A stretch of 64,000 bases of DNA from Candidatus Omnitrophota bacterium (GTDB lineage Bacteria > Omnitrophota > Omnitrophia > Omnitrophales > Aquincolibacteriaceae): the NCBI GenBank assembly GCA_903856085.1, contig CAIOAT010000047.1, positions 84,634-148,633 on the forward strand, written 5' to 3'. The notes below the pieces were generated by a model. That model searched no databases, was not told the origin of the DNA, and was given only the letters and a program-made list of their open reading frames with translations. Below are positions 1 through 49,100 of the stretch, piece after piece. The stretch's first letter is position 1, and every line of letters begins with the position of its first letter. Made by a program: the position numbers and the translations under genes.

Positions 1-1160
1 TATGGAGTGTGTCCTCAGTGAAGGTGAAGATGTCGTCTACCGATTTCAAAACACCGTACTCTTTAAAGAGAGCGATGGTCGCCGGCTTATTGCCGTCCCC
101 GAGCAGACCTTCGTCAGGATAGGCGCGGACATAGTGCCGGTAATAATCCCCGGTGATTTTATCTGCCAATTGAGGTAAAGCTTTCTGGAGCGCACCCTGG
201 CCGAACAGGACGTGCTGAATGGTCATCGCCAAAGGTATGACGATCGCTGATTTTCCGAAACCGGTCGGCGCGTAAAGGTTTTCATATTGAGCTACTACGA
301 ACCTCAGGATCGTCTGATACTGACTGACGCTTTCCTTGTCACCAAGCTTTATGTTCATAACGTTCTTGCCCTCGAAGAACCGGACGATCCCGTTCACCTT
401 GCTGGCTAATTCAATCTCATGGTTCAAGTTCCGATCGAACTCTGCCAGTTCATTCGCTGAAAGTCCGTTCCGTAGAACCTGGAGTCTTTCCGCATTCTCG
501 ACCAGAACAACCGTTTGACTGGATTGATCCCACTCCAGCCGCATACCGTCCGGCACCAGGTATTTCCGATCCGAGAAATATTCAGCCATCCCCGCAGCCC
601 CCTGGTCGATGAGCTGTTGCTTGGAAAGCGCCTTGAAGATGGAATCCGGATTGTCTGCGGCAGCCCAGGTACGGAGCCGGCTCATTTCGTTTCTCACAAA
701 CGCCTGGACCGGCAGCGGAACGTTAAAGCGTGCGGCTCTTTCTTTCATCATCCGGTCACGGATGGATGTCACAAGCCGCGTGGGTTTGGCCATCTCCTGC
801 TGGACATTTGTCAGCATGGCCCGGTAGGTATCGATCAAGCCCGTGAGCAAGCGAACCTCCGGGGGCCCGCGCGCCGGATCAACGAGTTGATCCACTTCCT
901 GCTTCAGATTGGCCGCCTGGTCCGTGACCAATCCCAACTGGATCTTCAGGCCCTCGAGTTCAGCCTCAAGCTTTTTGACATAATTTTGTTTTTGCAGGCT
1001 GCTGGGGTCGTTTGCCAGTTTTTGCTGGGCTTCGATCAACTGCAGCCGTTTATCGTTGAAACTGTTCGTGAGTTTATTTATAAAAACGTCTAAGGAGCGG
1101 CCTACCTCACTGATCGTCCAATCCAATTCCTTTCGCATGCTTTCTTCTGTGACATGAGCT
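1..1160 (-). other. SF2 (DEAD/DEAH-type) helicase-like ATPase domain, N-terminal part; the domain continues past the window start.
   Basis: Walker A / helicase motif I YAPTGFGKSAIVIPLAMT is encoded at 248-271 (minus). The flanking translation (verified 86-301 and 1256-1420) is globular-looking, e.g. ...FVVAQYENLYAPTGFGKSAIVIPLAMTIQHVLFGQGALQKALPQLADKITGDYYRHYVRAYPDEGLLGDGNK... No stop in frame through 1-1480. Confidence 0.6.
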
Positions 1161-4100
1161 ACTGCCGCAGGCGCAGCTTGGGGCGCCTGGACCAGCGTGG
1201 CCGGAGCAGTTTTCACCGCATTGGGAACCGCCGACGCTACGACCCCTGGAGTGGCGGGAGCTTTCCCGAACTTCCCTGAGAACCAAGCCATCATCCGTTC
1301 CAGAGCGGACATTCCGGGAGCATTTATTTCGATCAGCTGATCCACTTTCGCTTTTTGCGCGATGGTCAACGATCCATCGGCGACAAGTTTTGCCATGACA
1401 GCTTTGACTTCATCCACAGAGGCTGGTTTCTCCGCCGAAGGAACCCCGCCAAATCCGAAAATAGACTGCAGTGTTTTTCCTGCCGCCTGGGGTCCGCCGT
1501 TCAGGACATCGAGGTTATTTTTGACGTGCACAGCGATTTGTTCAGCGATGGCGCCGACGATACCGCTCAAGAGGCCTTTTTCAGCGCCCTGCGCGGCTTT
1601 GATCAGATCAATTCCCTGTTTTTGGGCAAACTGCCAATGGACCCCCAGGCGAGCCATTATAAATTCAAGGAACGAAGAACCAACGGGGCCGGTTGTGGAG
1701 ATCTGCAGTGCCAGCCAGCTTGCCACTGCCCCCGGTAAGTGGAACAGCGCGAAAACAGCCGCGGATAAATTGACAAGCCTTTTTGCGGCCTTCTCGCCAA
1801 GGAAGGAACCGATCGCGGCAGGTATTCCGATAATGACCGATGTTTCGAGGACGGGCATAATGTAACCGTTGATGATCCTATTCAGGACCTGTCCGATGTT
1901 TTGCCCGAAGACCTTGCTCGAAAAATTTGTCAGGCTTTCCAGGACCGATCGCACGATGCCGGCAGGCCGTGTCGTAGTCGCCAGAACAGCCGGAGCAGTG
2001 AGCGCGGTGGGCGAAACATTTGATTTTTCGATAGCGGGGATCGTCTTAAGGCCCGCCTGATCAAAGAGGAATGCCCGGTGATGTCCGTTGTCAATAGCAA
2101 TCGAACCATCCGGCAGGTGCAGGATCTCGATAGGATTTGCCTTCGTGAATTCAATCAGCTTGGCGATCGCTGCGGGGCTTGCTTTAAAGGCAGCCAACAT
2201 TTCTCCCATCGTCGCATTCCCGGGGATTTTCATCCCAAGAACATTGACCAAAAGATCGTGGATGCTCTGGATCGTGACTCCCTGGCGACCGATCTCTCCC
2301 CGAGGCGTTCTCAGGCTGTCGATCAGAATTTCTTCCGGAGCGGTGGCGGGCGTCTGGACGGTTGTTGCGGGCGCTGTCGTGCGTCCAAGAATGCGGTCAA
2401 TAATGGCACGGAACAACTCCGCGAACCCGGCGAAAACGGATTGAACCTGACCCGTTGATCTCCCGCCGATATTGGTGCCGGCAACACCGCCCTGGCCTTC
2501 CACAACGGGAGTTGTCCCCTCGGGAAGTCCCGACAGACTGACCGCCGAAATTTCCGCAAGGATGGGCAGAATGTTCGCCAAGGCGGTACCCCGGATATTT
2601 CCGAGATTGATGTCCCCGACTGTCGCAGGCTGATGTGCCAAGCTATCTCGCAAAGCCACCGCCTGGCTCGCCGTAAAATCGGCCGGCAGGGTGAACGAAA
2701 CCGTTGCAAATCCCTCTGGGATCGCCGTGATCACGGCTGTTATTTGACTATCCGTCAGATCTCGGCCAAACGTGATGGAAATATCCTGCGCTCCACCGGG
2801 TACGGTCCTCTGTATTTCCATAAAAAGATCGCGATTTAGGCTCTCCACATTCCGCCCGTTAATCTCGAGTTCGACCATCGGCGCTCTCGCCGGCGCTTCG
2901 GATTCGGTTATGCCGTGCTTCAATGCGTCGGCGGCTCGCGTCACATCGATCGGCGCCTCCTGGTGCCGGTAGGCCGCCTGATCGCGAACCACCGAGGCAC
3001 TATCAAAAGTTTCGTGAGTCGTTCTTACTTCAACACCGATCCCCGTAACCGCCCGGATGAAATCGAGAATCCCGGACGCGGGTGCTTCGTGTGTTCCCGC
3101 CTTTATTTCGCCTGGGATTTCCGTTTGCGGACGTTCGAGCTTACGCGTCGGTGCTTCCGCTCTCAAACGGGCCTGTTCGGCGGCATCATCCATGCTCTTC
3201 TGAGCAAAGCTCTCAAGGTCTAATCCTTCTTTTACTGCTTCATCCACCTTGAGCCTCATGCTTTCGCCCGCCTTGAGAACTTCGGAGACCAAGTCGGACT
3301 TGCTCAGATTTTCTCTTTGCAACTTACCGGTTCCCGAGAAAAACTCGCCGATAAGACTATCCACTCTTCCCCGAAGGGCCTCATTCGCGAGCGCACGGGT
3401 AAGCGCCGTTGCCAGAACATCGACGAGCTCATTCCCCTGGACCGCACCGATATTCGTGATCTCGCCGATCCTGAGGCCGAACTTCTCTTGAATGGCGTTG
3501 CGCAACCCTTCGGCATCCAGCGTACCGTCCGCTCTGGTAAAATTTTTGACCAGGTCTATCATTTCGAGGCGAACATTTTCCGGCACGGACGCCGTCGTGA
3601 TACTGCCCAGCATCTCTTGGATCTGCGCGTCGATACCTTCGGCACCCCCGAAGAAAAGCTTCATGGATTTCTGGAAGGCGGAGAAAACATCCCCTTCCAT
3701 CAAGGCGCGCTCCAAGGACCTGCTGTCCGCGGCCTCGATATTGTTCTGGGCCCTGACGAATGCCTCGCGGGCCCACCGGGAAGTCGGGAAGAATTCCGCA
3801 AGCCTCTGATAAGCGCCGTCCACAAACCGGCTCAAGCCTGACGACATTCCTTCCCCAAATCCTCGCATTAAAAATTCACCGCTGCCGATTGCCGTTCCTT
3901 TTTCGAGCGATACCAATTGATAGCTGAATCCCACATCGCCCTGGCGGCCCGCACGGCCACGATTCTGCATATCTGCCCGGACGGAATCGTTCACCCCGAT
4001 CCCGATTTGAACAAGACCTTGGGTCTTCAGCAGTTCTTTAAGCTTGATATCCGTTCCGCGGCCGGCGATATTGGTCGCGATTGTAATGCCTCCCTTTTCA

Positions 4101-7100
4101 CCCGCGGCTTTGATGATATCGCTTGACGCTCTCTCATTGCTCGCATCAAATGTCCGGAAGAGATCACCGTTTTTGGTATTCATGGAATCCAGGATTTTCT
4201 TGGCACGCTCGACGACCACAGGATCGAAGACAATCTCCTTGCCGGCCGCGTCTATGCCTTTACCGCTGGCGAATTCTTCGAGGATGGCTCGGACATGGAC
4301 TTCCATTTCTTTGGCGCTTTGGATAGATAACGTTGTGATCAGGAAGGAGCTTCCCGCATCCAGGAGGTGCCGCGCCAAAACACTCTTCAATCCGTTCGGC
4401 CCGTTCAGGAGGTCCGCGTCGCTCCTAAAAGTCCTCATTTCCGAGTCAACCCGTAGCTGCAGGTTGTGCGCGGGAATCTCCGCCACCTCAAGACCGTAGA
4501 GGCGCTTGAGCGTATCAGGCGTCCGGCCTTCGGTCGCAGTGCCGGTCATACCCGTAACCCTCTGAAAGAAGTTCAGAACGTCCCGTGTCTGGATACGGGC
4601 CGTGGTCACAGTCTCAGCATGAATGGCCAAACCTTCTTTAGCTTCAATAGCCTGGTGGAGCTCGTTCAAACGCTGACCGTTTTGATCGGTGCCGGTTTCA
4701 CCGCTGATCAGTACGACATTTCCTTGGTCATCAACGCGATATTGGACCCCATCATGGAAAAGGATTTCGGCCTGAACGGCCCGGTCCAAGAACTTTTGTC
4801 CTTCCGCCGTCAAAGTCAAACGGCCTGATCCGTCTGTCGCGACCTCAACAAACTGGTGGAGACCCTCGGCTTGCAGTAAACGCGCGGCCAGTTCACGCCC
4901 GGCATCGGTTGCATGGGCAAAACGTCCCGCTTGATCGAAAACCACCTCAAATTCTCCGGCCACTCCCTCAGGTCCCTTCACGCCGCTCCTGAAAACTTCG
5001 GTCCCTATCTTGGTGCGTTTCAGCTCACTTACTATTTTCGCAAACGCCGTCAAGATGTCCCGCTGTCCATTCCCAACAAGCTTTCCGGATCCCGAAGAGA
5101 TAATGAGAGGTGTTTTCGCGAGCGTGATCAGAATGGAGTCGGCCTCGTCGATCACGAGCAGGAAGTCCCGGAAATCATGTCTGAAAATTTCCTGGCCCGG
5201 TTTTGCCTGGATATCGTTGTACACCTGATCGGCCTTCAAAGCCTCGTCGCTCACATAAACAATGCTTCGCGAATAAACATCCTGTTTTTGACCCAAGTCC
5301 ATATTGTCGTGGATATACCCGATATCCTTACCCAGGAAATCCGCAATCGCCACCACCTCTTTATAGGCGGCTTCAGCCCGCTCCGTCGTTGTAGTCTGCA
5401 TAACCGCGTGGCCACTGATCAAGGCTGTCAAAAAGCCGACATAGGTTTTTCCTTCACCGGTCAGGAGCTCGGCGATCTTTCCGCCCTCAGCCATAACCGC
5501 AGACGCCATGAGCTGTTCCCGGTGAAGCACAACGGCGGGCCTGTCCGGATTACGGGCCGTTTCGACAAATCCGATCGCAAGCGCATAAGCCGCAAAAAGC
5601 TTGTCACCCTGGGCATTATTAATTAAGTCGAGGAGCGCCTCGCGGATCCTGCCAAGATCTTCAGGATTCCGGCAGAGATCATTTAACACGGCTAACGCAT
5701 CCCGGCCTTTCAGTTCGATGCCTAAGGCTTTCACAATTTCGACCGCTATGTCCCGGCGTATCGAAATAATGCTGTTGACTCTCGCCGCGAAGGGCGCTCC
5801 GGCAATCCGGTTGGCCTTGAGAATCACCCACAGTCCAGGCGCCCTCCCCGTGAGCCAAGCAAACCACGACGACCGGCCGAACAGACCCGTCTCACCCAGC
5901 TTAAAGTTATCCCCGTTAAACCTACCAAAAAGGACGTTGATTTCATCATCAGTCATTCTGGAAAGATCCGCGTTCCTTAGAGCTTCAAGCATGGCAGGAT
6001 CAACAGATTCACCAATGCCCTCTCGCAAAGATTTCCACTCTGTCAGGTAAGACTTGCCAATGTCCGCACCGCCGCCCTCAAGGGATCCAAATACGGCTCT
6101 TTCCAGTTTCTGGAGGGCTTCGAGAGTCACCCTTCTCTCGGAAATCGAGAGCGAGCCGATCCTGCCACCAACAGTCATCCAGGTCGAATTGAACCACTCG
6201 ACCGCTTTCGAGAAAACGCTCTTGAACCGATCCCCGAAAGTCGTTGTCTGTCGATCCCGTATGGCTTTTTGAACATCGGCAAGTGATCGATTCACGTCTG
6301 CGGGCACGTTCGCAGGATCGAATGTTCCGGGAGTTTGGGTCACAGTTTCGGGAGGCGTGATCTCCGGGAGCTTTTCGAAAGGCTGGCGTCCCGCATTAAG
6401 AAGAAGGTCCGCCGAAATTTCTCCTCTCCGGATAGTTTCACGGCCCACCATCACGAAATCCCCGCGGACAGCCAGAGTCTCGCCGGAGACAATGACCAAT
6501 GTTTTTCCATTCAACGAATCCCGCAAAGCAGGGTCAGCTTCGATCAGCCCTTGCAACCGTGACAACAATTCAGGCGATTCTCCGACGCCATCCCATGTCA
6601 GTCTCAGGGTTCCGTCGCTCGCGAATTCAATCGTGATACGACCCTCGACTCTGATGCCGGCTATCCTCAAGATCGAATCGATGAGAGGATTCCTGGCCCC
6701 GGGCTGGGCAAAGGTCACGACCATGTCTATGATATCGAGTAGACCCGTTGCTAAGGCAAGCCGAGTCACATCCCCACTCGGAATGGTATCGTTACTATGG
6801 GCCCCGAAAACATCGGCCAATTTCCCGGCAAACGCTTCCCAGCTTGATACATCGGCGCCTCTAAGCTCATTCAGGGCTTGCATCATTTCAGGCGACACCC
6901 CTTCGCCTCTTACATTGGCCCGCTGCTCCAGGAATTTCACGAAAAGATCTCTTAATTGCGGCAAGTCAACAGAAACAACATCTCGGGCCAGCAAGGTGAA
7001 AATATCGCGCAGCAATTCAGCGGCGAACCGGCCATTTTCGCGAGCACCCACAGCATCGACCGTGTGCAGCTCTGTCATCGAAAACATAAGTTCCGTGTGG

Positions 7101-10100
7101 AAGATCAAATCCCTTTCCAGAGAGGTTAGATCCCTTCCGCTCATAGCTTCAAAGTCAACCATGATGCGCTCCGCCCGGGCCAAACCGACCAACACAGGCC
7201 GCATTTCCCCAAAACCTAACTCGCCCCCCCAGCGCCGGATGAGCAAGTCCCCGATGAAATTGTTTGTCCAGTGGCTCAGGTCGATCCGGTCGAGCTTCAA
7301 CCCGCTAACATCAATGCCAAGGCGCGCGAGCTCCAGGATGATCTCTGTGAAATTGCCACCGAGTTTTGCCAGGTTTGCCAAGTCCAGCTTCCCGGTTATC
7401 CTGCCCCCTCCGAGGACTACCCCGGCGGCTTGAAGTTCCGCCAGAAGCCGTATTTGATCCGGCGTCAATCTGGCTCCATTCAGTTCCCCGGTGATCTCCA
7501 GTCCGCGCATGTCGACGCGGCTGTCCAACATGGTTTTCAGATCGCGGAGCGTGGAAAGATCCCCCAATCTCGCCACGTCAAAAGTTCCGGTCATTTCGAT
7601 GCCGCTAAAATCCGCGCCTCCCACCAGATCACAAAGCCGCGCAAGGTCGGCAAGACTGGTCCTTCCAATGTCGATCATCCCGGCAAATTTGATCCCGCTC
7701 AAATCCCCGCCCAATGCCCGGAGTGTCCCAAAATATTCGAGCTGAGCGTCATTGAGTTTTAACAATTCGTTGACGGTATAGTCTCCTGAAAATTTGATCC
7801 TTCCCATGTCGAGACCCATGTTTGCAAGATCGATCAAGGCGCCGAGTATGTCACGATTTCCTTCTAGCGACCTGACATCAAACGACCTGTCTACTCCCAG
7901 CCGGTTCAACAAGCTCGCGTCCAAGGAGCCATTCTCACGCATCGCACCCAGGTCTTTGACAAAGCTCGCGAACCCGGCATCCGACCACCCGCTCATATCC
8001 AACGTCACACGGAACACGCCGTCTCTGATGGCGGTAAGGAATTCGCCCGCGAGAATATCCATGGTAGCGAGCGTTTCGCCAATCCGGAAACTGATCTCGC
8101 CCAGCCTCAGGCGGTCAATGCCGAGGCTCCCCAACGCCGTCAGTGCTTCCCTGAGGCTGACTGCCTCCGGGAGATCCAAGCTGACCCTAAGACCTGTCAG
8201 ATCCAATCCAAGCTCGCCCAATTTGCTTAAAAACTCAAGAACGTCCGTGGCTCTCAAAGTCCCGGTGGTTTTCAGATCGCCGTTCACTCTGATCCCGCTC
8301 AGGTCGACGCCTTTAACGCTCACCAAATTGATGAGATTTGAAAGCACCCCGTCCGTCACTAGTTTCACATCCAGGGTTCCCTCAATTCTCAGGTGGGTCG
8401 TGTCAACGCCGACATCTCCAAGAACTTTGAGAGCACTTGTCAGCGTATTGCCATTAAGCTTTGTCAGATCAAGCCTGCCGGATATTTCGACATTATGCAG
8501 GATCGCTCCCGCGCCTAACATGTCTGCGAGGATTTGCAGCCTTTCACCCGTCAAGGTCGCGCCATCCAGTTTTCCGGTAATGATTTGATCTCTTAAACTT
8601 GTCAGGTCGATCTTGACCCCTGCGTTTTTCATTGCGTCGACTAATTTCAGAACATCGCCGAGCGACGATTTTCCGGCGCCTTCTCCGATCAGATCCCCGG
8701 GGATCTTGACCTCAAACCCTGTCGGCGCTCCTATCAGCTTGAACTCGATCCCCACACCAAGCATCCGCAGCAATGCGTCGCGCAAGCCGATGGAATCCCC
8801 CGGCTTGAAGTTCTTGAGATCCACGGTCACTTTCGTACCCCTAGGAACATCCACCAACTGGGTAAGATCGGCAAGAGAGGTCACGCGTAACGTTCTCGTG
8901 AAGAAGTTCCGGGAGATCTGCGTTAATGACGTGACGCCAAGCATTTGTTCCAGGGCCCTTGCATCTTGCGTACTGAGTTTCTTAGTGTTACTAAACTCGA
9001 GGCCAGAAAGATCCGCGCCTAATTCTTTCAGGCCCGAAAGATCTGCGCCGGTTTTCGCGAAATCGGAAACACTGATCGTTCCGTCGAGCCGGACGCCTTT
9101 CAGGCTAAATCCGTCAGGCAGAGAATCGACCACTTTGGATAAATTTTCTTCCGTGAGACCGGTTAAAACAATATCTCCAAAACCGCTCTGGCGAAGGAGA
9201 TCCATCGTGCGACCCAAGGTCGAGTCGGCGCCAAACCCAGCTGTTTTTACGTCGATCGTGAAACGCCAACCTTCTGTACCGTCTGCCCCACGCACAAGCT
9301 CCGGTATGATCCAAACATCAGTCCCGATCTTCTCGCGAATAGCTTCCATTTTGGTTTCTATTTCGGTGTGCAGCCGATCCGGCAGGTCCTTGCCGACTCC
9401 GGAGATCACCATAGCGAGCTGAGATGCTATCTTCTCGCCGAATACCGGGGTCAACGCAATGGTCCAAGCATTCATCACGATCCCGAGATCAATAAAAGCC
9501 TGGCTGAACGCAAAACCTTCTTTGGCGAGAGCCTTAATCATGACTTCCAAGTACTTGGCGACGGAAGGATTTTTGCCAAGCGTCGCGGCCTCTTCGCCAA
9601 GAACCGCTCTTTCCACGAGAGGGAAAAGCTTGTTGAGATATTCAATGACGGATCCCACCACAGGCATCCCGTGGATCAACACCTCGACCGGGCCTATGAG
9701 GTACATCAAGGGGCCCATCGAAAGCATATTCGTAAAATTATCAAAAGCGCTCATGCTGGCAAAGTCCCAGAATCCCAAAACCCCCCGCAGGAACATGGCC
9801 GCCACCTGGACAACGAATCCGCCCTTGCCGGTTCTCAAAAACGCCTCCAGATCTTTTTCCGATTGGGCAATGGCCATCCGGAAATCGATCGATCCTCCGG
9901 TCAAGAATTGGGCGAGTGAAAGCACAACATTCTCCCCGAAATGCAGAGACACGCCGAAACGGGCCAAGCTGAATGTTTGAGCCAGCAGGAATTTCCATGC
10001 CAGCACTCCCCTCGCTCCGGGAACGAATATTTGAAGGCGTAAAGCAAGAAGTCTGGCAAATTGTGCCCAGGTACCCGTTACGCCGCCTATGGCCGTGAGC

Positions 10101-13100
10101 TTGGCGGTTTGCATGATTCTCCCGGCTATTCTTGCCAGCCCTGAAGTGAAACCTAAGAAGGCGGCTTCCGCGGCAAAGCCGATGAAATCGATGACGTTAA
10201 TTCCGAACAACTTTTTAACCAAGGTTTCATCGCTCGCCTCGGCGATAAGAGCGATCTTCTGAGAAATAATATTATTCTGGCCATCCAACTCGGCAAATCG
10301 ATTCCCCGTGACTCCGATGAGGCCGCCCAAACCATTAAAAAGCATGGCATAGGTCGCGCTTATCCTGAAAGGATCACAACCATACGCGAGAGCAATGAGC
10401 CCGCCAGTCAGCAGGACACCGGCCACGATAGCAACACCGATCCAACCGCCGGCCACAAGAAAGGTTCCGGCAGCAACAGCCGCAGAGATTTTAACGACGG
10501 CAAGTACAACCGCAATTGCACCCACAATGATCGCCACCCCGGTCGCAATGACGTTATGCTCCCCAGCAAACCCGACCCAATAGTTGGAACACATGGCATA
10601 TTGATATTGCAAATAATGGAACGATGTGCTTAATCCGTAAGAAATAAAATCATAAGCTGTGCTAAAGCCGTACCCAATGCCGCTCAAGATGCTTTGCCCC
10701 CACGCTGGCAAGATATCGTAAATATCGCTAAAATATCCGCCGACTTCGGCACGGAGTCTCGACCAGAAGCCTCTCTCGGTGAGATTTTGCATGTCCGCCA
10801 GCGAACCCTCATGCAACTCGGAGAAGAAAAAGCCTTCTTCCTGAGACCAGCAGGTGACGGCGCAGTCGAACGCTATCCCGCCAAGCGATACGCCGCTGGT
10901 GATAGTGCCGTCAGCCAGAATGTTGAGACTTCTGAATTGAAGAGCCGAGTAATTGCCAAGATTTTCCGTGAAGCCATTCTTGAACCCGTCATTCAGGCCG
11001 CGCTGGGCGACGTTGAGGAGACCGCCCTTAAATTTCCCGAAATCCCCTAGGCCGTGAAGGATCTGTGTTCCGTTCTGCAGAACTACCCGGTCGTCCAGGA
11101 CTTCAGAAAAATTCGTGTAGTCCATTTTTCCGTCAAGGATAAAACCGGCGGTCGAGAAGTCCAAGTAGCCCTTCTTTACACCCCCGTCTGAAATCTCCAC
11201 AATTTCACGCCGGAGCAAGACGCCGTCGCGGCCAAGGATATCCTTGACCGTGCTGCCATCCGCCCCGACGGTCAGGATCTCGCCGCTCACGATCCCGAAG
11301 TGATCGTAGTTCATGGTCTCGGTTATCTTGTTGGTGCCAAAACCGTAGACCACCTGCACGGAGGTCACCGAATCGATCAAACCGCCCTCGCTCGTGTATT
11401 GCGAAGTGGTGGTGACGATCTGCGTCGCGACCTTGGTCACGCCGTCCGAGAGGACCTTGACCGTGTCATCGGCGACTTTTGTCACCTGGGTCCAGGCGCC
11501 GCTCGCATCGTAGAACTTTTCCCACTGCGTCTTGACCGCCCCGCCCGTCGCTATGTACGACTCGTAGGATTTGAGGCCGTCGTCATAAAGCGTTTTTAAC
11601 TTCCCGAAACCGTCACTGGTCGTCATCTCGACCTGCATCCCGTAGAGGAAGGACATCGACTCGGCTTCCGTCGGGCTCATGAGTGTCGCATTGCCGTTGA
11701 TCTTGACCGCGACAGACTCCGCGGCGAGTTTCCTTCTCCTCTCGTCCAACTGCTTTTCGATCCCCGCCCATGTTTCCGCTTGGTAGCGACCGGTCTGGAT
11801 GATCTCGCCGCCGGCGCCGACGAAGATGTGCTCTTTAATCCGCTCTTCGATGACGTCTGTATCCGAGATTACGTCGTTGTAATACAGCAGGCTGTTGTAG
11901 GCGCGTGCGCGGCTGGCAAAATTCCCGTCCCGGTCCTGACTCAGAGCGCCGAGTTTCATGAGGCTCGAATCTGCCAGCACGGCGTTGTAGTCGTAGAGGC
12001 TGCTTGAGGCGAATTTTTCGGGATCGAATTCATAGAACTGGTAGGTCATATTCTGCGACCAGTTCTCGTAATTGCTCCGACCTCTCAGGAGCTCATCGGT
12101 GAAGATCTGGCTGAAAGAGGTCTTGTCCGATTCATAGCCGTATTCGTAGTAATCGCGGATCGGCAGCAGTGTGTTCTCCGTAAAATTAAGCACCAGCCCG
12201 CCCAGGTTCACAATGTCCGTATAGAGCCCCTTCGTGTTGCCGCCGCTCACCGAGTAATCGGAGATCAAGAAAACAGTCTGTCCGGCAGCGTTCTTTGTGC
12301 CGATGCGGAACTCCTTCAAAAGATCCGTAATGTACAATGCCTTGGCCTGTTGCAAGCCCTCGAGACCGCCGGTCCCCTTGCGATTATCATTCCCCATTTG
12401 ATAGGTTGACCCATGAAGCACGGACTGGATCACGTCCTTCATCTTGGCGTAAAGGTCGAAGAGACCTTGTTTGGGGACATTGCTTCTGTCGTTGGCCGTA
12501 GTGCCCCACAGATCATCGCCGCGAAGGTTATCGGTCAGCTGTTGGACATAGGCCACGATAGGAGGTTGGCCCGGCAGAGTCGGACCTTGTAAACGCGTAT
12601 CGTAAGCATAACGTATGAAATACGGGTTGCTTGTCTGCGCGGAAGAATTATTATTGTTGTATACGTCACCCTGGCTGATACTCGCAGTCACATCGCCGAA
12701 AATTTTCTGCAGCCGGCCGTTCGGGCCGAGCATGGAATTGGCGAAATCATCCACGATCATCTGGATGCCACCGTTAAAACTTCCCTGCGAAGGAACGTGC
12801 CCGCCGGCCTCAAAGCCCGTCGTGTTATAAGCGTTGACCAGTACGCCGTCGCTCTTCGGCTTTTGGATCGTGCGTAGATCGCGCCCGGAATCGGTGGCGA
12901 AGTCCTGGAACGCGGCACCATTCGAATCTCCGTGCAGCAGGAACTTCCGACGAATCTCTTCCATTTTCTTGGCATAAGTCCCCTTGATCGTCGCAAAAAC
13001 GGGCTGGCCGTCTTCGATCCCCACCTGGACTTTGTTGAAGCGGTTGTCCCCGATGATCGAATTTTTATAAATATCCGTGATAATGGCGAGCTTGCTGTTC

Positions 13101-16100: not shown

Positions 16101-19100
16101 TCGGCGAGTTCCGTGGAGCTGACCATGTACGAGGTGCGTCCGCCGACAAGCCGATCGTTCTGGATCGCTGCATTCCGCGTCGAGATCTCCTTGCGAAGTT
16201 CCGCGTCCTTGGCCTGCTCCGTGATGTAGGTCTCGTATTCGGTTCGGGCGATCTCAATCCAGTTCTTGTCAGCGTTGTCGGAATACAACTGACCCGACTG
16301 ATTGTCCTTCGTCGCAAGACCGTTTTGAACCTTGCCCATCAGCTCAGTGTATAAAGTCTTTTTGGCCGTAAAGTACTGGGCTTCCTGGGCAATCATGTTG
16401 TTCATCAACGTGACCAGTTGTCCGCCCGCATGCGCACCGGTGGTTGTGGATGTATACTCGACGCGCTGGATATAATTGTCGTCTTTCACGCCCTTGCTAC
16501 TCACATTGGTATTCCAGTTAACACCATTCGTATTAAGCGATGCCGCTGCCGACAGGGAACCAACGCCTGAAACAGCACCGGAATTCCCCTTAGGTCCAAA
16601 GGCTGTGTAATCCCAACTAAAGAGTTCACTGATAAGCGATGTGTCATTCTTGTAATTGATCTGCATCCGCGGGAATTCTTCGAGGAAGAGATTGCGGACC
16701 GACTTCCCCGCCACGGGCGTCAGGTAATCCCCCGTACCGCAAGCTCCCGTGCTTCCGGAGCCATTGGTGCACTCGTTCAAATACTTTGTCATGAAATCAT
16801 CTACGCTGAGGGTCCCGGTAAAAGCGGGATCGCGCTCCCGAACCTGAACATACCGCTGGATCTCATGCGTCAGGCTGTCATCCAGACTCACAGCGAGATT
16901 GGTCTGCGCGTCCCCGGAGCCTAGCGCAAGAGCCGTCGTCTGATCGTCCGGGTTGAAACTATTCAGCGGGTTGTCGTCCTTGAACATCACCCCCGAGAGA
17001 TCATTCAGGAAGCTCTGGAAATACGAGACCGAGACTTTCCCCGTCGAATCCACGGCGCCGCCTGAAGTAAAGGTCAAATTCCCTACGCTAAAAGTGTCGG
17101 TCTTATCAAAATACGATGAGCCCGGCGTCAGGATCGGGAAATCGAGGCCGTACTCAGACGCCGTATTCTGGGGATTGTTTATAGTATCAACGGCAGCTAT
17201 ACCTCCGGCGACAGCACCCGCAACAGTTCCAGTAGAACCGCCTGAAAGCAAGCTCGCCATCCCGAGCAATGTGGCCAAATAGCCGGCGGTGTTGGTGTAG
17301 TTGCCATCGAGCGGAATTTTCCTGGAGTACCAATCCATGAGGGCACGCGTATTCCCGTTAAACTGAGCCTCACTTGAGACAAGATACTGACCGCCAACCT
17401 TAATGCCCGCGACATCTTGAATCAGCGACCATTGATAGAACTGAGCCTGCAGGGTTTTCATGGAAGTCATGATCGACGTATCCGCCGTCGCGCGGTTCGC
17501 ATCCATTGCCGTGGTAAAATTTGAGAAGGCGGTTTCGATATCCGCCATGGCGGCCTTGAGCGGTGACGCGTCGCGGGCCACAACGCCGGATGAATAGACC
17601 AGACCATCGAGCTGCGGACTTTGGTTCGAAACAATGTCGTAAATATCCCCGTTGATGATGTGATTCGTGTTGTCCCCGCCGGTGGCGCGCGTCACGCTCA
17701 CAAGAGGACTGACCGTCGTGTTCGCCGTAAAACCGTTCTTTCCGAGGTCCCCGGACCCGCCAAGGATGAAATCGAGACGCTCGCGGTATTCCGAGAAATA
17801 CTTTGAGCGAAGTGTCGTCGGCGCAAGCGGATAAGAGGACATGTCTTGCGGGATAAAGGCGAGCGTGGATTTATTCACCAGCGCGGTCGCGTCATAGCTG
17901 GCACCCAGCTGGTAAACACGCGCCTCGATCGACGACGAATCGAACACCTTGGTCAGCGTGATCTTCTTCGTCAGAGAGTCATCACTCAGATCGTTCCCAT
18001 CGGTGATGTTGACCCAGGTATTCCCCACTTTCTTTTGCGGGCGGTAGATCATCGTGGTTCCGGAATATCCCGCCACATCTTGCTTGTTGTAGACCTGGAC
18101 CTTGTAATAGTAGCCGTCTGCATCCTTTTGGACCGTGGACTGATAATCAAAATTCCCGATCGAATCGCTCGTAAGTCCGGTCGCATTCCCGGCAAGACTC
18201 ACGATCGAGCCCGTCTTGGAATCGAATTCAAAGCGGACGGCGCGGCTGGACTGGAAGGCAGCGCTCAGGCCCGCGAGCTGGTCCGCGCTCTCGGTGGTCT
18301 CGTCGTTATGGAGCAGCTCGAGTACCCCGTCGGAGCGGCGGCGCAAGTGGCTGTATTTGGTATAATCGCTGTACTTGGTCGGGATCGTCTGGTTGTAATA
18401 TTCCTCGGCATCTTCCGCGATAAAAACGCCTTGTTCATAGACGAGGACATGCCGCGTATCCTTGAACGGGAGTCCGACCTCGGTCACCCCGAATTGCGGG
18501 GTCAGGTGCTCGATGTAAGTTTCCTTCATCTTCATCGGAACACCGTATTCGTCGCGGATCACCCAGGAATTACGCAAATCAACAGCATTCAGGGGCACAT
18601 CGGCCGAGACGTTTCTCCCCTCCGCTCCGTTCATGGGAACGATATACCGGTCATACGTGTAGGCGCGCACCGTCGCGAACGCCGACCGGTCATCGATACC
18701 TGTTCCACCGCTCAAGAAGGATTGCCTGACAGCGTCGTAGAGGCTGGCATTCTCTGTGCTGAGACCCGCGCCCGGCGCGGAATCGAAGGCGATGTCGTAG
18801 AGCTTTTCGTTTTCACGGCCCATGACTGAGATATTCCCGTCGGAATGAAGGATATAAGTCTCGATCGGCTTGCCCGTGGAGTCTTTCATGATATTGCCGC
18901 TTGTGTCACGCATGTAAGAGTACCGCTCCACATTTCCGGTTCTGTCCACGGTCAGGAGCGTCATCCCCTCGGCATCGGTAATGACTGAAGTGTGGTCCGA
19001 AGTCGCATTGTACAAAGGATTGTTCGTCACCTTCTGCAACTCATCACTGCCGATGGTTGAGCTGAATATCTGACTGACCCACGAACCGTCACCGTTTTTG

Positions 19101-22100
19101 ATCTTGCTGGGGTCGGTATGGGCGATCGTCAAGACCGGTCCGTTCGTGCTGCTCTGGTAATAGTCGTAGTAGTGAGTGACGCCGTCAGATTCCACGGTCC
19201 GGTCGATCCTCTCCTGGCCGCGGGGACCGCTATAATACGTGAAGGTGATCTGACTTTGCTCGACGCCGGTTTGCGGATAAGCCACCGCCGTGGTCTGGAC
19301 CAGCCGGTCATTTGCATCGCGATAATAAGTCGTGTAGGAATAGATCTCGTTCTGGAGGCTATAGCCGGTGATGTTCCCGGAGGCATCGCGCGTCGGACGG
19401 GCCGCCTGGCGGTACTGCTCCGTCGCCTTGATGAGTTCAAAGCCCTTGGATCCCGTGTACTCCTGGACCACGAGGATCGGTGTGGCCTCGCTCGCCTCAA
19501 GATGTTTGATCATCGGATCCTGACCCGAGAGCAGTTGAATCAGCGTTGTGTTCTCAAGGGAGAGTGTCACCACCTCAGTGATCGCGCCGTAAGAATCGTA
19601 ATGATAGATATCCACAGATTCCACGTCTGCGACGCTGTCGGCCCGGAGCTTCACGGCACGGTAGACTTTCTCCTTGCCCTGGTCGCCGGCGTAGAAAATA
19701 TAGGTGTGCTGGAAGGATCCGCTCGAGTAATACGTCGTCTGCAGCACGAAATCCATGTCACCCGCATCGCTCGCCCCGTCCTTGTCCATATCGAATAGTT
19801 TGAGATCAAGACCCGTCGTGCTCTCGCTGCCGCCGGCCTCTGCGCCGTATTGATAGGCATTATTCTGATTCGAGGTCTGGGCGGAATTCGGCGGAGGAAG
19901 ATCTAGCGCGGTTCTCCGGCCACGCGCCAGGCTATCCTGTACATTGATCAGCTGGCGATCGCCCGTGACCGATACGGCATGCTCATAATCTTTCTCACCT
20001 TCATAAATCGTTTCGACCATGGTTTTCTTCAAGGTCGTACCGTCGGGAGTTTCCATCGGCTCAAACGCGATCAGTTGTGTCTTCCTCAACGCCCCCGTCT
20101 GCGGATCGTAGAAATTGAAGATGCGCTGTTTGGGATACCGGTCGGTTCCAGTAATGGCATCCGCTTCTTTGAGATCCGCGGTGTACAAAGGCGCAAGGGC
20201 ATTCGCGTCACTTCCCATGTCCAGATATTCATCCGTGGTCAGAAGGACTTCTTTCCCGCTCGACCCTTCATAGATCGCCTGACCGGTGATCTGGTAGCTG
20301 TCCTTTCTCATGTAATCCACGCGCTGCAAAGCGCCGTCGGTTCCATACCACGAATAGTTCGTCGTCAGGACGGAGCCGTCCGGAGCGTAATTCGTGACCT
20401 TCGAGGTTTTTTCCGCGTCTTTTTCGCCAAAATAATCGATAACGGTGGAGACATAGTATTGAGGCTCACCTTTTTCAGCTTCATTGGAGTAGGTCACGAT
20501 CCTCGTTTGGGCGCCCAAGGATTGGCCGTACTGGGTTGCCTGGGACGAAACATAATTGGCTACTTGGGAACCGCTCGTTGCCGCCTGAAGCGCGACTGTC
20601 GCAATATTCGCCATGCTTTGCAGTTTTACAATGCTTGGATAATCGCTCGTGAGCTTTTGCAACGCATTGACATTCGTCGTGATGCCGGCTTTCAATTTTG
20701 TGATTGTTGCGTTCAGAGTGCTGATATCCGAATTGACGTTGGCTTGGCGCAAGACGCTCAAAAGCTGGTCGATGGTCGTCGAATCCGAAAGAACCTGGTT
20801 CTTGAGCCGGATGCCATCGGAAAGGGCGACGCTATTCTGCAAAATGCTCGTCGGACCTGTAGCGGCCAACTGCGGCAGCATGTTGTCGATCTCCTGGATC
20901 TGTTCGTCGATTCCCGCGATTTTTGTTTCCAGAACATGCCGCGATAAGGCGACCGTCGAATCAACCAGTGGAGAGTGAAGAGTAGCATTAAGCGCATCCC
21001 TCTCGGCCTGCAATGCAGGTTTCGCTTTTGTGGCGGCGTCGCGCGCCGTTTCGACAAAACCCGGGATATTGCTCAGCGCATTCGCGAAATAGCCGCTGTC
21101 GTCTTTTTGCTCGGCTGACTGGAAAGTCGACGATGCGAGGCTGAAGTAAGACTCGGCGAGATTGATGTAGGCGACCGTCAGGTGGATCTTGTTATTTTCC
21201 GTCTCCGGCCTGGCCTTGGCGATGATCGGATCGATCATCGTATGAATGTCCGCAACCCCCTGATCAATCGTGATCCACTGGGGATTAATATCTTTCTTTG
21301 TTTCATCGTAGTAATTCTTCATGGAAGTGGCAGTCTGGAGAGCCTCCGCAATGATCGTTTGATTATCGGTGACAGGCGCGCCGGCGATCCGCTTATAGTC
21401 CCGGGCCATCTCGATCGAGGATAACAGCTGAGCGTTCTCATCCTGCAGGGACTCGAGCTTCGTGATCGTGTTGGAAAGAGTCTGGGCCGTGTACTGAACC
21501 TTGCCGGCCTGAATACTCGCTTTTTCCTTCAGCTGATCCGCCTGATCCCCAAGCCCACGAACTGCCTGCGCCACATACATAGGCACATCGCCGTATTTAT
21601 TGCCATCCCCGACCCCTTCCTGCCCCGAATCGATCGTGTCCCAGAGTTTTTTCGCCGCAGTGGCGATGCCGAGTTTCTTTGCGCCCTCGATCTCCAGGAT
21701 CCTCATGTCGCTCTTGGCCTGGATCATATCCGTAAATTGCTGCGCCATCTCGGCCACAAGTCCGATAGCTCCCGGGTTCGACCCTCCCGCTTTGATCGCC
21801 TCAGACATTTGCGTAGCCTGCTTTCCTTTCGCCTGGGCGGAATCATACGCCTCTTTCATGGCTTTTCTTGCAAGCACCATGGCCTCATACAGAACCTTCG
21901 CCTTCGTTTTTGCCATGACGGGATTCCCGTCCTTATCAAGCAGCCCGGTATCGGTAAATTCCGCCTGCGGATCGCCGAACGTCACGGTCTCGTCCCACGA
22001 AACATCGGTGGTAGGGATCAGATTCGCGGATCCCGACGAAGCGGTGATCTTGGCGGCCTTATCGGCTTTTACATAATCGATCTTCGCAAGATCGGCCCAC

Positions 22101-46100: not shown

Positions 46101-49100
46101 CGGTCGACATCCTTCTGGTCGATCCAGTTGTCCCCATTTATGTCCATCTTATTGCTCAAACCTTGGACATAGGAACTCACATCGTGCGGCTCAACCAACA
46201 TCACGGACCCGTCAGTGGATAAGCGCACCTCGTAGACCACTGTTCCGAGGGTCACTCGCTGGATGCCGTCGGCGCCAATCTGCGACTTCGTACCGTTGAA
46301 GGAGTACGTGCCGTCGTCATTCTTGGCATAAGTGTAATTAGTGCTGTTCAATGCAAGGACCGTCGGGCTGACCACGGTGCTCTCGGCATGCTGCTGGGTC
46401 AGCGTGACACGCCCCCATGTATCCACGGCCAAAAGATAGATCTTACCGCCGATCGTGACATGCTTATCGCCCAACGTATTTTTAGATTCTTCCGGAACGC
46501 CGGAGAGTTTGGACTCGGTAAATGTGTAAACTCCCTGATTATCATCAGAAATGGTGAATTCGCGGCCGTCCACGATGAACTTCGCGGGGTTGAGGAGCGC
46601 CTCATAATTCTTGAGATCGGCCTCATCGACGATGCCGTCCTTATTGGTATCCGCTTTGAGATAATCCTGCAGGGTGAAGCTCGTCCCGAGAGCGAAGTAC
46701 TGGGTGAGCTTTTCGGCCTGAGCGACATCCGCCTCGTTGACCACGCCATCATTATTCAGGTCATACTCATAGAGCTTGTTGGCTGTCGCGAGAAGCATGG
46801 CCTTGTCCGTATCGTCGACCTTGCCGTCTTTATTCACATCAGCCAGGGCGAGATCCTCGGGGGTAATATTGAGGCTGAAGTATTGCTGCATGTCATTGGC
46901 GAGGCTGAGATCGAGCGAATCAAAAACCCCGTCCCCGTTCAGATCGCGATCGGCCATCGCCGCGATCGACGCCTCCAGAGCATCAACATCTTGACCGTTT
47001 ACCTCATTGTCACCATTAACATCAGCGCGATTGTAATCTTGCGGCTGGATCACTTCGCCGCGACCGGCCGCATCCTTGACCGATTGGACCTTGGCAAGCA
47101 GCGCCGTCAACGCAGCGGGAGTCAGATCGGCTGTGGTGATCTGAGCACCCGCGTTTTCGGGCTTTTGATTATAATTCGCCACATAGCCCTTAAGCGCAGC
47201 CAAGCCATCGTTCAGCTTTGTCAGGTCATCGCCAGTGACCGTTCCGCTGCCGTCCAGATCCGCCACGGCCCCTTCGTAATATTGTTTTTTGTTTAGATCG
47301 TACACTTCGCCGCCGATCGTGACGCGGAGAGGCGCTGGATTACGCGTGGTGGTTTCGACTTTGAGATTATCGAACTTCGCGGTCGTTTCGGTCGCCAGAA
47401 GCGCGATGCGCCCGGAGGTGAGAGCCGTATCGGTCACCGAGGCCACCTTCTTTCCGTTCACCCACACGTTGATCTTGCCGCTGTCATACTCGATCCGGAC
47501 CTTGGCCGTCTGGTCTTTCGCCCACGTGAAGCCGAGCGGGACCTGGACCGAAGAGTTCACCGGCATATCCTGGACATTTCCGGCGACTTTCTTACTGAGC
47601 GAAAGCATGCCGGTTTGGCCATTGATGGAAAGCTGGTAATAATTGTTGGCGTCCTGGTCATTGAACCGGATCTGGACCTGGTCGCTTCCTTCGGTCGTCA
47701 CGACATCCGTCTCGAACGCGAAAGCGCCCTGCGTCACAAGGGACGTCAGAAGCTCGGTCGATTCCCCGGCCGTGGTCGTCTTGATCGTTTTGAGCACGTT
47801 GTTGGAAACCACCCAGAGGCCCGACTTGATAACCCAGTCCGGAGGCATGACATTGGAGTCGAAATTGGTATTCACGACCGACGTCAAGATCTCCGGGTTC
47901 GTCGTGTAGGTCACGGACGGATTCGTGGCAAGAACGAAAGTGTAAGTCGAATCGGCGTTCTTCCGTATCCAGTATTCCTTGCCGTCCAGGAGAATGCTTT
48001 CATCATACTTGTGAGCGCTCACGTTGTCGTACTGCTCGACCAGCTTGATCGTTCCGGTAAAGCTGTCGCGCAACACGTTATAGATCTTGTTCTTGATCTC
48101 CACCCGGTTGGAGGTGGCGTTCGTGGTAAAGGTTTTGTAGCCGTCAAAAAGCAGGTAACTTCCGTCGCCGCGGTCGGTCACCCGGTAATCAACACCCTCA
48201 AGACTGATGAGCTGGTCAGCCGCGGTCACCGACGTCTCGAATTTCTGGATAAGCGACAGTCTGCCTTTGTCACGGTCGAAACGGACGAGATATGTTTTAC
48301 CGTCGAGCGTGATCTCGTTGGACTTCGGATCGCTTATCTGCCCGTTGATCACATAATTGCCGGCGACGTTGATACTCCAAGTGAACTTAATCTTGGCTTC
48401 TTTGTTGTCAGCGGAACAATTATCGCTCGGCGGATCGCAGATGGTGCCATTCATAGCCTGAGGACCGCCGTCCGCTGAGGAGTAATTCTTGTGCGGCTCC
48501 ACAAGCTGGATCCCGATCTTCCGCGTAAGATCATTTTGGATCTGGTACGAAACATTATCCAATGTGATAAAGCGAGATGCCGCATCTCCCTTGACCGCCA
48601 CCTTGGTGTCTTTGTCGGTAAAGGTGAGAGAACCGTCACGGTTTTCCGTCACGTAGTAAGTGCGGCCCCCTATCTCAAGGACCTGATCCGCCAGCGTTTC
48701 GCTTACGAGATGACGTTCGATGAGACTCACGAAGCCGGTGAAAGGATCCTGCGCGATATCATAGAGGATGCCGTCGAGCTCCACGCTCGGCTCAGTGTCA
48801 TAACTCTTCACCTCGGGTTGGCCGCCTAACACAAAACCAAACTTCATGTTCCCGTGATCGATGACGCCGTAAGTCTTGCCCTTAACTTCGATCACCTGAT
48901 CAAAGCGGTGCTGGCTCGCCTTGGTCGCTTCGACCAGCGTGACCACGCCGGTATCTTTATCCACCTGGATCTGGAACACCGTGCCGCGGATCTCGACCGT
49001 CATGTCCGCATTGCTTGTGGCGCTCTCGGTTCCGGATTTAAATGTGTAAAGATTCCCAACAGGAACCACATCCCAGGTGGCGCCAAGCAATTTCAGGACA

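Follow-up and report, generated by a model that had tools for sequence, protein, structure and literature searches.

The window analysed here, a 64,000-nucleotide stretch of contig CAIOAT010000047.1 (positions 84,634 to 148,633) from a Candidatus Omnitrophota bacterium, is part of a single giant gene that runs past both of its ends on the minus strand, and a short, strongly hydrophobic block encoded at 10373 to 10561 is probably the membrane anchor of an exported, dockerin-type giant surface protein, with the N-terminal side outside and the C-terminal side in the cytoplasm (N-out/C-in). All calcium-binding dockerin modules, and a DUF1080 domain with them, are N-terminal of the block, and a SecA-like ATPase is found only C-terminal of it. 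Residue i of the protein, which is at least 21,333 amino acids (aa) long with the frame open at both window ends, occupies window positions 64000-3i+1 to 64000-3(i-1), and its principal features are as follows.

2 to 64000, minus strand: open reading frame (ORF) of the giant gene, continuous over 21,333 codons and open at both window ends.
34304 to 61255, minus strand: dockerin type I/EF-hand calcium-binding span, aa ~916-9899, matching Pfam Dockerin_1 and EF-hand_7.
47357 to 47839, minus strand: DUF1080 (3-keto-disaccharide hydrolase) domain, aa ~5388-5548, matching Pfam 3keto-disac_hyd (E 9e-10).
10373 to 10561, minus strand: hydrophobic block, aa 17814-17876, the sole convincing transmembrane (TM) segment, with a Kyte-Doolittle 19-residue mean that peaks at 2.87.
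9323 to 10372, minus strand: region of unusually high hydrophobicity and low charge, aa 17877-18226, predicted to be all helix; it may form a domain embedded in the membrane or lying at its face.
3911 to 5527, minus strand: SecA-like motor, aa ~19492-20030, with nucleotide-binding domain 1 (NBD1), the preprotein cross-linking domain (PPXD), and NBD2.

The giant frame, which encloses the hydrophobic stretch as the original prediction had proposed, is free of stop codons, whereas the two remaining minus-strand frames have ~900 each. GC content is even at ~54% over the window, including the site of the block, and relative synonymous codon usage correlates well between the parts of the protein N-terminal and C-terminal of the block (r = 0.83); given this evenness in GC and codon usage, no sign of a chimera is seen at that site.

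The block (aa 17814-17876) is the only strongly hydrophobic segment of the protein. Minus-strand translation of 10382-10558 yields HNVIATGVAIIVGAIAVVLAVVKISAAVAAGTFLVAGGWIGVAIVAGVLLTGGLIALAY, identical to the peptide quoted in the original prediction, and the block has 57 hydrophobic residues with one charge (K17837) and a GG pair at 17851-17852. Every other Kyte-Doolittle peak in the protein reaches 1.6 to 1.84, and the mean hydropathy of the 57-aa block, 2.19, is matched by none of 1,000 shuffles, the maxima of which average 1.24 +/- 0.15 with a top value of 1.85. On the Hessa biological scale, the only 19-mers of the whole protein with negative sums are at 17818-17836 (-2.26) and 17854-17872 (-1.01), and a re-implementation of the Hessa 2007 insertion energy agrees, with negative values confined to aa 17817-17875 of the 21,333 aa; its parameters are approximate, and all insertion energies given here are likewise indicative only. 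A TopPred-like scan with the Goldman-Engelman-Steitz scale was dropped as non-discriminating on a protein this rich in Ala, Gly, Ser, and Thr, as it returned 29 'certain' calls that included a beta-strand of SecA.

The domains on the two sides of the block differ in the compartment that they would be expected to occupy. In the N-terminal part, Dockerin_1 matches in three separate pieces (E 4e-61 over six stretches, 4e-12, and 8e-17), EF-hand_7 also matches, and all 34 DxDxDG motifs are N-terminal of ~aa 15,000, so the calcium-binding region that had been proposed upstream of the block is well founded and is joined there by the glycan-related DUF1080 domain. Dockerin and EF-hand modules depend on extracellular levels of Ca2+, and DUF1080 typically occurs in exported proteins. 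The RHS label that had also been given to this part of the protein is not confirmed, with no RHS profile match at E<=0.01 anywhere in the window, and none at E<=10 to Pfam or NCBIfam in the 1,147 aa that precede the block (aa 16667-17813). By eye, YD-repeat-like motifs (MNYDHFGIVSGEI, ILGRDGVLLRREI, and GYLDFSTAGFILDGKMDY) can be picked out at window ~11000-11400 (aa ~17540-17660), where no RHS profile matches.

Across the whole protein, composition changes most strongly at aa 17,566, ~250 aa N-terminal of the block, where the change point has a log-likelihood ratio (LLR) of 183 versus a block-shuffle maximum of 48. C-terminal of this point Arg is 2-fold higher, Tyr falls to 0.3-fold, and Asn, Gln, Ser, and Thr are reduced, which is the direction expected for cytoplasmic relative to exported proteins. 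Other change points are nearly equal, such as that at aa 6,247 (LLR 163), and the composition shift near the block is thus supportive of separate compartments but not decisive.

The SecA-like domain that had been noted downstream of the block is borne out by Pfam matches to SecA_DEAD (7e-33), P-loop_SecA (3e-15), and SecA_PP_bind (2e-6), with which PDB SecA matches agree. It shares NBD1, PPXD, and NBD2 with canonical SecA at ~30% identity (27-32%), and motifs I, II, III, V, and VI (GEGKT, IDEAD, GMTGTA, NIAGRGTDI, and RGRAGRQGD) are invariant in an alignment with three SecA proteins; with its ATPase motifs kept, the motor presumably requires cytoplasmic ATP. NCBIfam SecA models match only positions ~81-542, and the best scores 219.6 bits against a cut-off of 814. 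Unlike canonical SecA, the motor is not free-standing but would be tethered in cis by the TM module, and it appears to lack the N-terminal amphipathic, lipid-binding helix, the helical scaffold domain, the helical wing domain, and the C-terminal domain, with nothing matching past position ~542. Just after NBD2, at window ~3700-3900 (aa ~20040-20100), REAFVRAQNNIEAADSRSLERALMEGDVFSAFQKSM resembles by eye the start of the SecA scaffold helix (AQKKVEGxNFDxRKxLLEYDDV), and part of the helical scaffold may persist past NBD2 although the profiles stop short. A search of contig collections with the SecA-like domain recovers only canonical SecA, at the same 27-32% identity.

How the block crosses the membrane depends on the number of its helices. 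The original prediction combined a hairpin with an N-out/C-in topology, which is self-contradictory, because N-out/C-in requires an odd number of spans and a two-helix hairpin keeps both flanks on the same side. The parts that bear on the count are the following.

10493 to 10552, minus strand: first helix core, aa 17817-17836, VIATGVAIIVGAIAVVLAVV; Hessa sum -2.26, approximate insertion energy -1.3 to -2.0.
10490 to 10492, minus strand: K17837, the single charged residue, directly after the first helix core.
10445 to 10489, minus strand: middle segment, aa 17838-17852, ISAAVAAGTFLVAGG; approximate insertion energy +1.5 for a 17-mer.
10382 to 10444, minus strand: last helix of the block, aa 17853-17873, WIGVAIVAGVLLTGGLIALAY; Hessa sum -1.0, approximate insertion energy -0.7 to -3.3 depending on length.
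10307 to 10363, minus strand: marginal extra helix, aa 17880-17898, ISATYAMLFNGLGGLIGVT, uncharged; approximate insertion energy +2.3, Hessa sum +4.2.

The middle segment, which sets the parity of the block, may be a third span of short length, may form a turn, or may extend two long helices. An odd count requires a three-way split, at K17837 and at G17851-G17852, or one marginal downstream helix; the uncharged helix at 17880-17898, if membrane-spanning, flips the parity. A crude positive-inside model places the C-terminal flank inside in its best models and does not fix the N-terminal flank.

Several points weigh against an N-out/C-in anchor. With the helix count as the test of parity, dynamic-programming segmentation on the approximate energies renders the block best as two helices, 17817-17844 and 17847-17875 (28 and 29 aa, -5.2 kcal/mol), and three short helices total about -0.8 kcal/mol, ~4.5 worse than the two long ones. 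The low-confidence AlphaFold2 secondary structure also has two helices in the block, 17814-17835 and 17843-17872, which are separated at VVKISAA, not at GGW. When the wider region is modelled, a helix at 17981-18006 is added in the best odd model, which trails the best even one by just 0.3 kcal/mol, and the top-scoring model of the crude topology calculation is N-in/C-in. The true N-terminus, and hence any signal peptide, is beyond the window, and an exhaustive HMMER search with the block and its flanks (aa 17500-18290, 791 aa) found no homologue among 1.84 billion representative proteins. The proposed N-out/C-in orientation is favored by domain content and by the composition change point, and is not carried by the parity calculation, in which the best split is even and odd and even models are 0.3 kcal/mol apart. 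It is plausibly the most sensible topology on biological grounds, and the helix count does not demonstrate it.

A genuine two-helix hairpin, with both flanks cytoplasmic and the giant protein intracellular and membrane-tethered, would accommodate the energetic split, the AlphaFold2 helices, the N-in/C-in model, and an N-terminus that lies beyond the window together with any signal peptide, and it would place the protein in the 'TM-only' class that is predicted for 46% of long Omnitrophota proteins and so is common among them. It would also, however, put dockerin and EF-hand modules where Ca2+ is below the levels that they need, and enclose in the cell a DUF1080 domain of a type usual in exported proteins, and it leaves without a reason the placement of all these modules N-terminal of the block and the sharp composition shift beside it; moreover, published Dockerin-type proteins, discussed below, are predicted to be extracellular up to their anchor. 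We regard such a hairpin as unlikely, while giving it more weight than the other alternatives.

For the N-out/C-in anchor, the giant N-terminal part would be exported and lie outside the cytoplasmic membrane, and the block would serve as a stop-transfer anchor that crosses the membrane an odd number of times, as three short helices with breaks at K17837 and G17851-G17852 or as two long helices with one marginal helix downstream. The Arg- and Lys-bearing hydrophobic helices of aa 17877-18226 would be embedded in the cytoplasmic leaflet or lie upon its surface; the tail, with beta/alpha repeats, the SecA-like motor, and a possible further P-loop domain, would be cytoplasmic. The block and the adjoining helices could keep the SecA-like motor at the membrane, substituting for its lost membrane-binding elements. 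Being translated last, the motor cannot power export of the chain to which it belongs while that chain is being made, and its substrates would instead be other copies or partner proteins.

The region that follows the block (aa 17877-18226) contains the most hydrophobic 300-aa stretch of the protein apart from the block itself. The grand average of hydropathy (GRAVY) over aa 17900-18199 is +0.64, compared with a protein mean of -0.19 (standard deviation, 0.25), and the charged fraction is 0.157 versus 0.216 for the protein as a whole. An AlphaFold2 model of the TM region, computed with no alignment, is all helix over aa 17877-18226, although with a predicted local distance difference test (pLDDT) score of only 40.6, such that its secondary structure alone was used and no fold search was made. 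The helices are mostly amphipathic and bear Arg or Lys, all of their insertion energies are positive, and in the insertion-energy scan no single helix in aa 17877-18226 passes the TM threshold. The further hydrophobic helices that had been proposed at 9400-10230 thus hold up at the level of the region. Given the unusual hydrophobicity of the ~330 aa after the block, the membrane module may be larger than a hairpin.

These properties raise a second alternative, that the block is the start of a larger polytopic domain (aa ~17814-18226, perhaps 6 to 10 helices) that does more than anchor the protein and might provide a channel or docking platform for the SecA-like motor. The GRAVY value is within the range of integral membrane proteins, the low charge and all-helical prediction fit, and several helices have approximate insertion energies of +0.3 to +2.2, as do marginal helices in multi-span proteins; but each downstream helix is charged, or short and amphipathic, none has a negative energy, the AlphaFold2 confidence is poor, and no family or homologue was found, so that a polytopic domain seems distinctly unlikely. 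A more far-reaching proposal, which we hold to be quite improbable, is that the SecA-like motor works together with the block and the ~330 aa of hydrophobic helices after it as a self-contained, cis-encoded membrane machine without homologues, which might serve as a dedicated translocase for further copies of the giant protein or for ATP-driven pulling or remodelling of an extracellular fibre from inside.

Less credible again is a toxin-type insertion or translocation hairpin, like those of pore-forming colicins and the diphtheria toxin T domain, that would stay buried until it meets a prey membrane and then deliver the ATPase-bearing C-terminal part to the prey. A hairpin that is very hydrophobic, rich in Ala, Gly, and Val, and set between amphipathic helices is in keeping with such a device, and giant proteins have been linked to predation and, in another system, to cell-to-cell transfer. 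However, no colicin or toxin translocation family matches even at E<=10, a cargo of >3,400 aa far exceeds any known translocated effector, and the SecA-like domain is a housekeeping-type export motor, which together make this highly unlikely. It is barely conceivable that the stretch belongs to the interior of a soluble domain, or that it arose through an assembly or frame error: the AlphaFold2 model is too poor to exclude a bundle, but 57 residues with one charge, a hydropathy far beyond that of shuffles, and negative insertion energies all speak against a soluble core, and a frame without a stop over 64 kb, with even GC content and codon use across the site, speaks against such an error.

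The remainder of the tail contains three further elements.

7301 to 9133, minus strand: repeats of beta-strand and alpha-helix, aa ~18290-18900, recurring every ~35-45 aa, previously labelled a leucine-rich repeat (LRR).
1700 to 1855, minus strand: weaker second hydrophobic pair, aa 20716-20767; Kyte-Doolittle 19-residue mean 1.67-1.74, approximate insertion energy +0.3 to +1.6.
248 to 271, minus strand: P-loop APTGFGKS, aa 21244-21251, found by motif scan; similar to superfamily 2 (SF2) helicase motif I, 83 aa before the window end.

The repeat region is modeled as beta/alpha repeats, with weak and mixed fold matches to TIM-barrels and to LRRs of the nucleotide-binding, leucine-rich-repeat (NLR) type, and no LRR match was found there in Pfam (aa ~18290-18900); the LRR label is accordingly not confirmed. 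The weaker hydrophobic pair, PVLETSVIIGIPAAIGSFLG-EKAAKR-LVNLSAAVFALFHLPGAVASWLALQI, sits between the SecA-like domain and the terminal P-loop and may form another membrane hairpin or lie buried. At window ~2030-2120 (aa ~20627-20657), ILHLPDGSIAIDNGHHRAFLFDQAGLKTIPA resembles by eye a ParB/sulfiredoxin-type DGxHR signature, with no Pfam match at E<=10. The APTGFGKS P-loop has a hydrophobic strand ahead of it, and the rest of any helicase domain, from motif II on, would be beyond the window. The second motor, a helicase, is not confirmed, its evidence being this motif I-like sequence, with no Pfam or PDB match to a helicase around that end of the window. Of the two different motor ATPases attributed to the tail, the SecA-like motor is verified and the helicase comes down to the P-loop.

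The TM-proximal region and most of the tail appear, from these searches, to be a sequence orphan, and one that is unusually complete for such a length. A protein homologue search with aa 17650-18300 found none, the tail minus its SecA part (~2,900 aa of aa 17877-21333, window 2-10372 excluding 3911-5527) has none in a protein database of 5.8 billion clusters, and no locus related to aa 20030-21333 was found in genome or metagenome contig collections. Searches of Pfam (E<=10), NCBIfam, and PHROGs with the TM region, the tail, the ParB-like motif, the P-loop end, and the region before the block returned insignificant matches only, among them a phage holin (E 0.33), DUF6825, and SHOCT.

Of several smaller observations on the window, plus-strand ORFs are listed at up to 495 aa and are antisense shadows of the giant gene, and Rfam and tRNA scans for RNA genes in the window are empty. 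Cysteine is scarce across the protein (23 in 21,333 aa). In the N-terminal 17,800 aa Lys exceeds Arg and Asp exceeds Glu, and both ratios shift in the tail; GC content at third codon positions is 0.67 in the N-terminal and 0.61 in the C-terminal part.

Among known proteins, Ebh, the giant surface protein of Staphylococcus aureus, has very large exported repeats, a membrane span near its C-terminus, and a cytoplasmic tail, which is short and without an ATPase; we know of no sequence relationship between Ebh and the protein in the window. Archaeovorin-type giants (of Velamenicoccus archaeovorus and its relatives) are likewise giant and membrane-associated, with a divergent SecA_DEAD domain after TM regions, but they have many TM helices along the protein and many enzyme domains, whereas across its 21,333 aa the protein in the window shows a single hydrophobic module and lacks an enzyme set of that kind.

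The closest likeness is to the Dockerin-type giants of Omnitrophota, in which the N-terminal bulk is without TM segments and an anchor near the C-terminus is followed by SecA domains (West-Roberts et al. 2023, bioRxiv 10.1101/2023.11.21.568195). Everything N-terminal of the anchor is predicted to be extracellular in these proteins, and those with complete C-termini have a predicted intracellular region, although the authors call TM predictions for Dockerin-type giants unreliable (West-Roberts et al. 2023). Shared with them are dockerin/EF-hand repeats, DUF1080, the absence of TM segments from the N-terminal bulk, an anchor on the C-terminal side, SecA_DEAD and preprotein-binding domains after the anchor that apparently come without scaffold and wing, and a predicted intracellular tail. 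The protein in the window differs in showing no bacterial thrombospondin type 3 (TSP3) or discoidin repeats (no match to PF18884 or F5_F8_type_C at E<=0.01 in five pieces covering the window, beyond which the gene extends), in a tail of >3,400 aa with a further P-loop at its end, and in a TM-proximal region and most of a tail without detectable homologue. The length criterion for the Dockerin type is at least 30,000 aa, and the window shows at least 21,333 aa in a frame open at both ends. Giant genes of Omnitrophota have been reported to have T2SS-like and PilZ genes as neighbours. A 2026 preprint reports TM helices or a signal peptide in 94% of 916 long Omnitrophota proteins and recovers both a dockerin cluster and a SecA_DEAD cluster. 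To call the arrangement unusual, as the original prediction did, is thus an overstatement: the layout was published by West-Roberts et al. 2023, the architecture is already in the literature, and the protein in the window adds a further example that leaves the published Dockerin-type picture unchanged.

A C-terminal anchor with a SecA-like motor is the most concrete handle on the mechanism by which bacteria can secrete and retain proteins tens of thousands of residues long. The protein described here is a clean case: its >21,000 aa include just one hydrophobic module, its ATPase motifs are intact, and the hydrophobic domain next to that module has no relatives. A simple design of topology mapping and ATPase assays is possible on such a protein.

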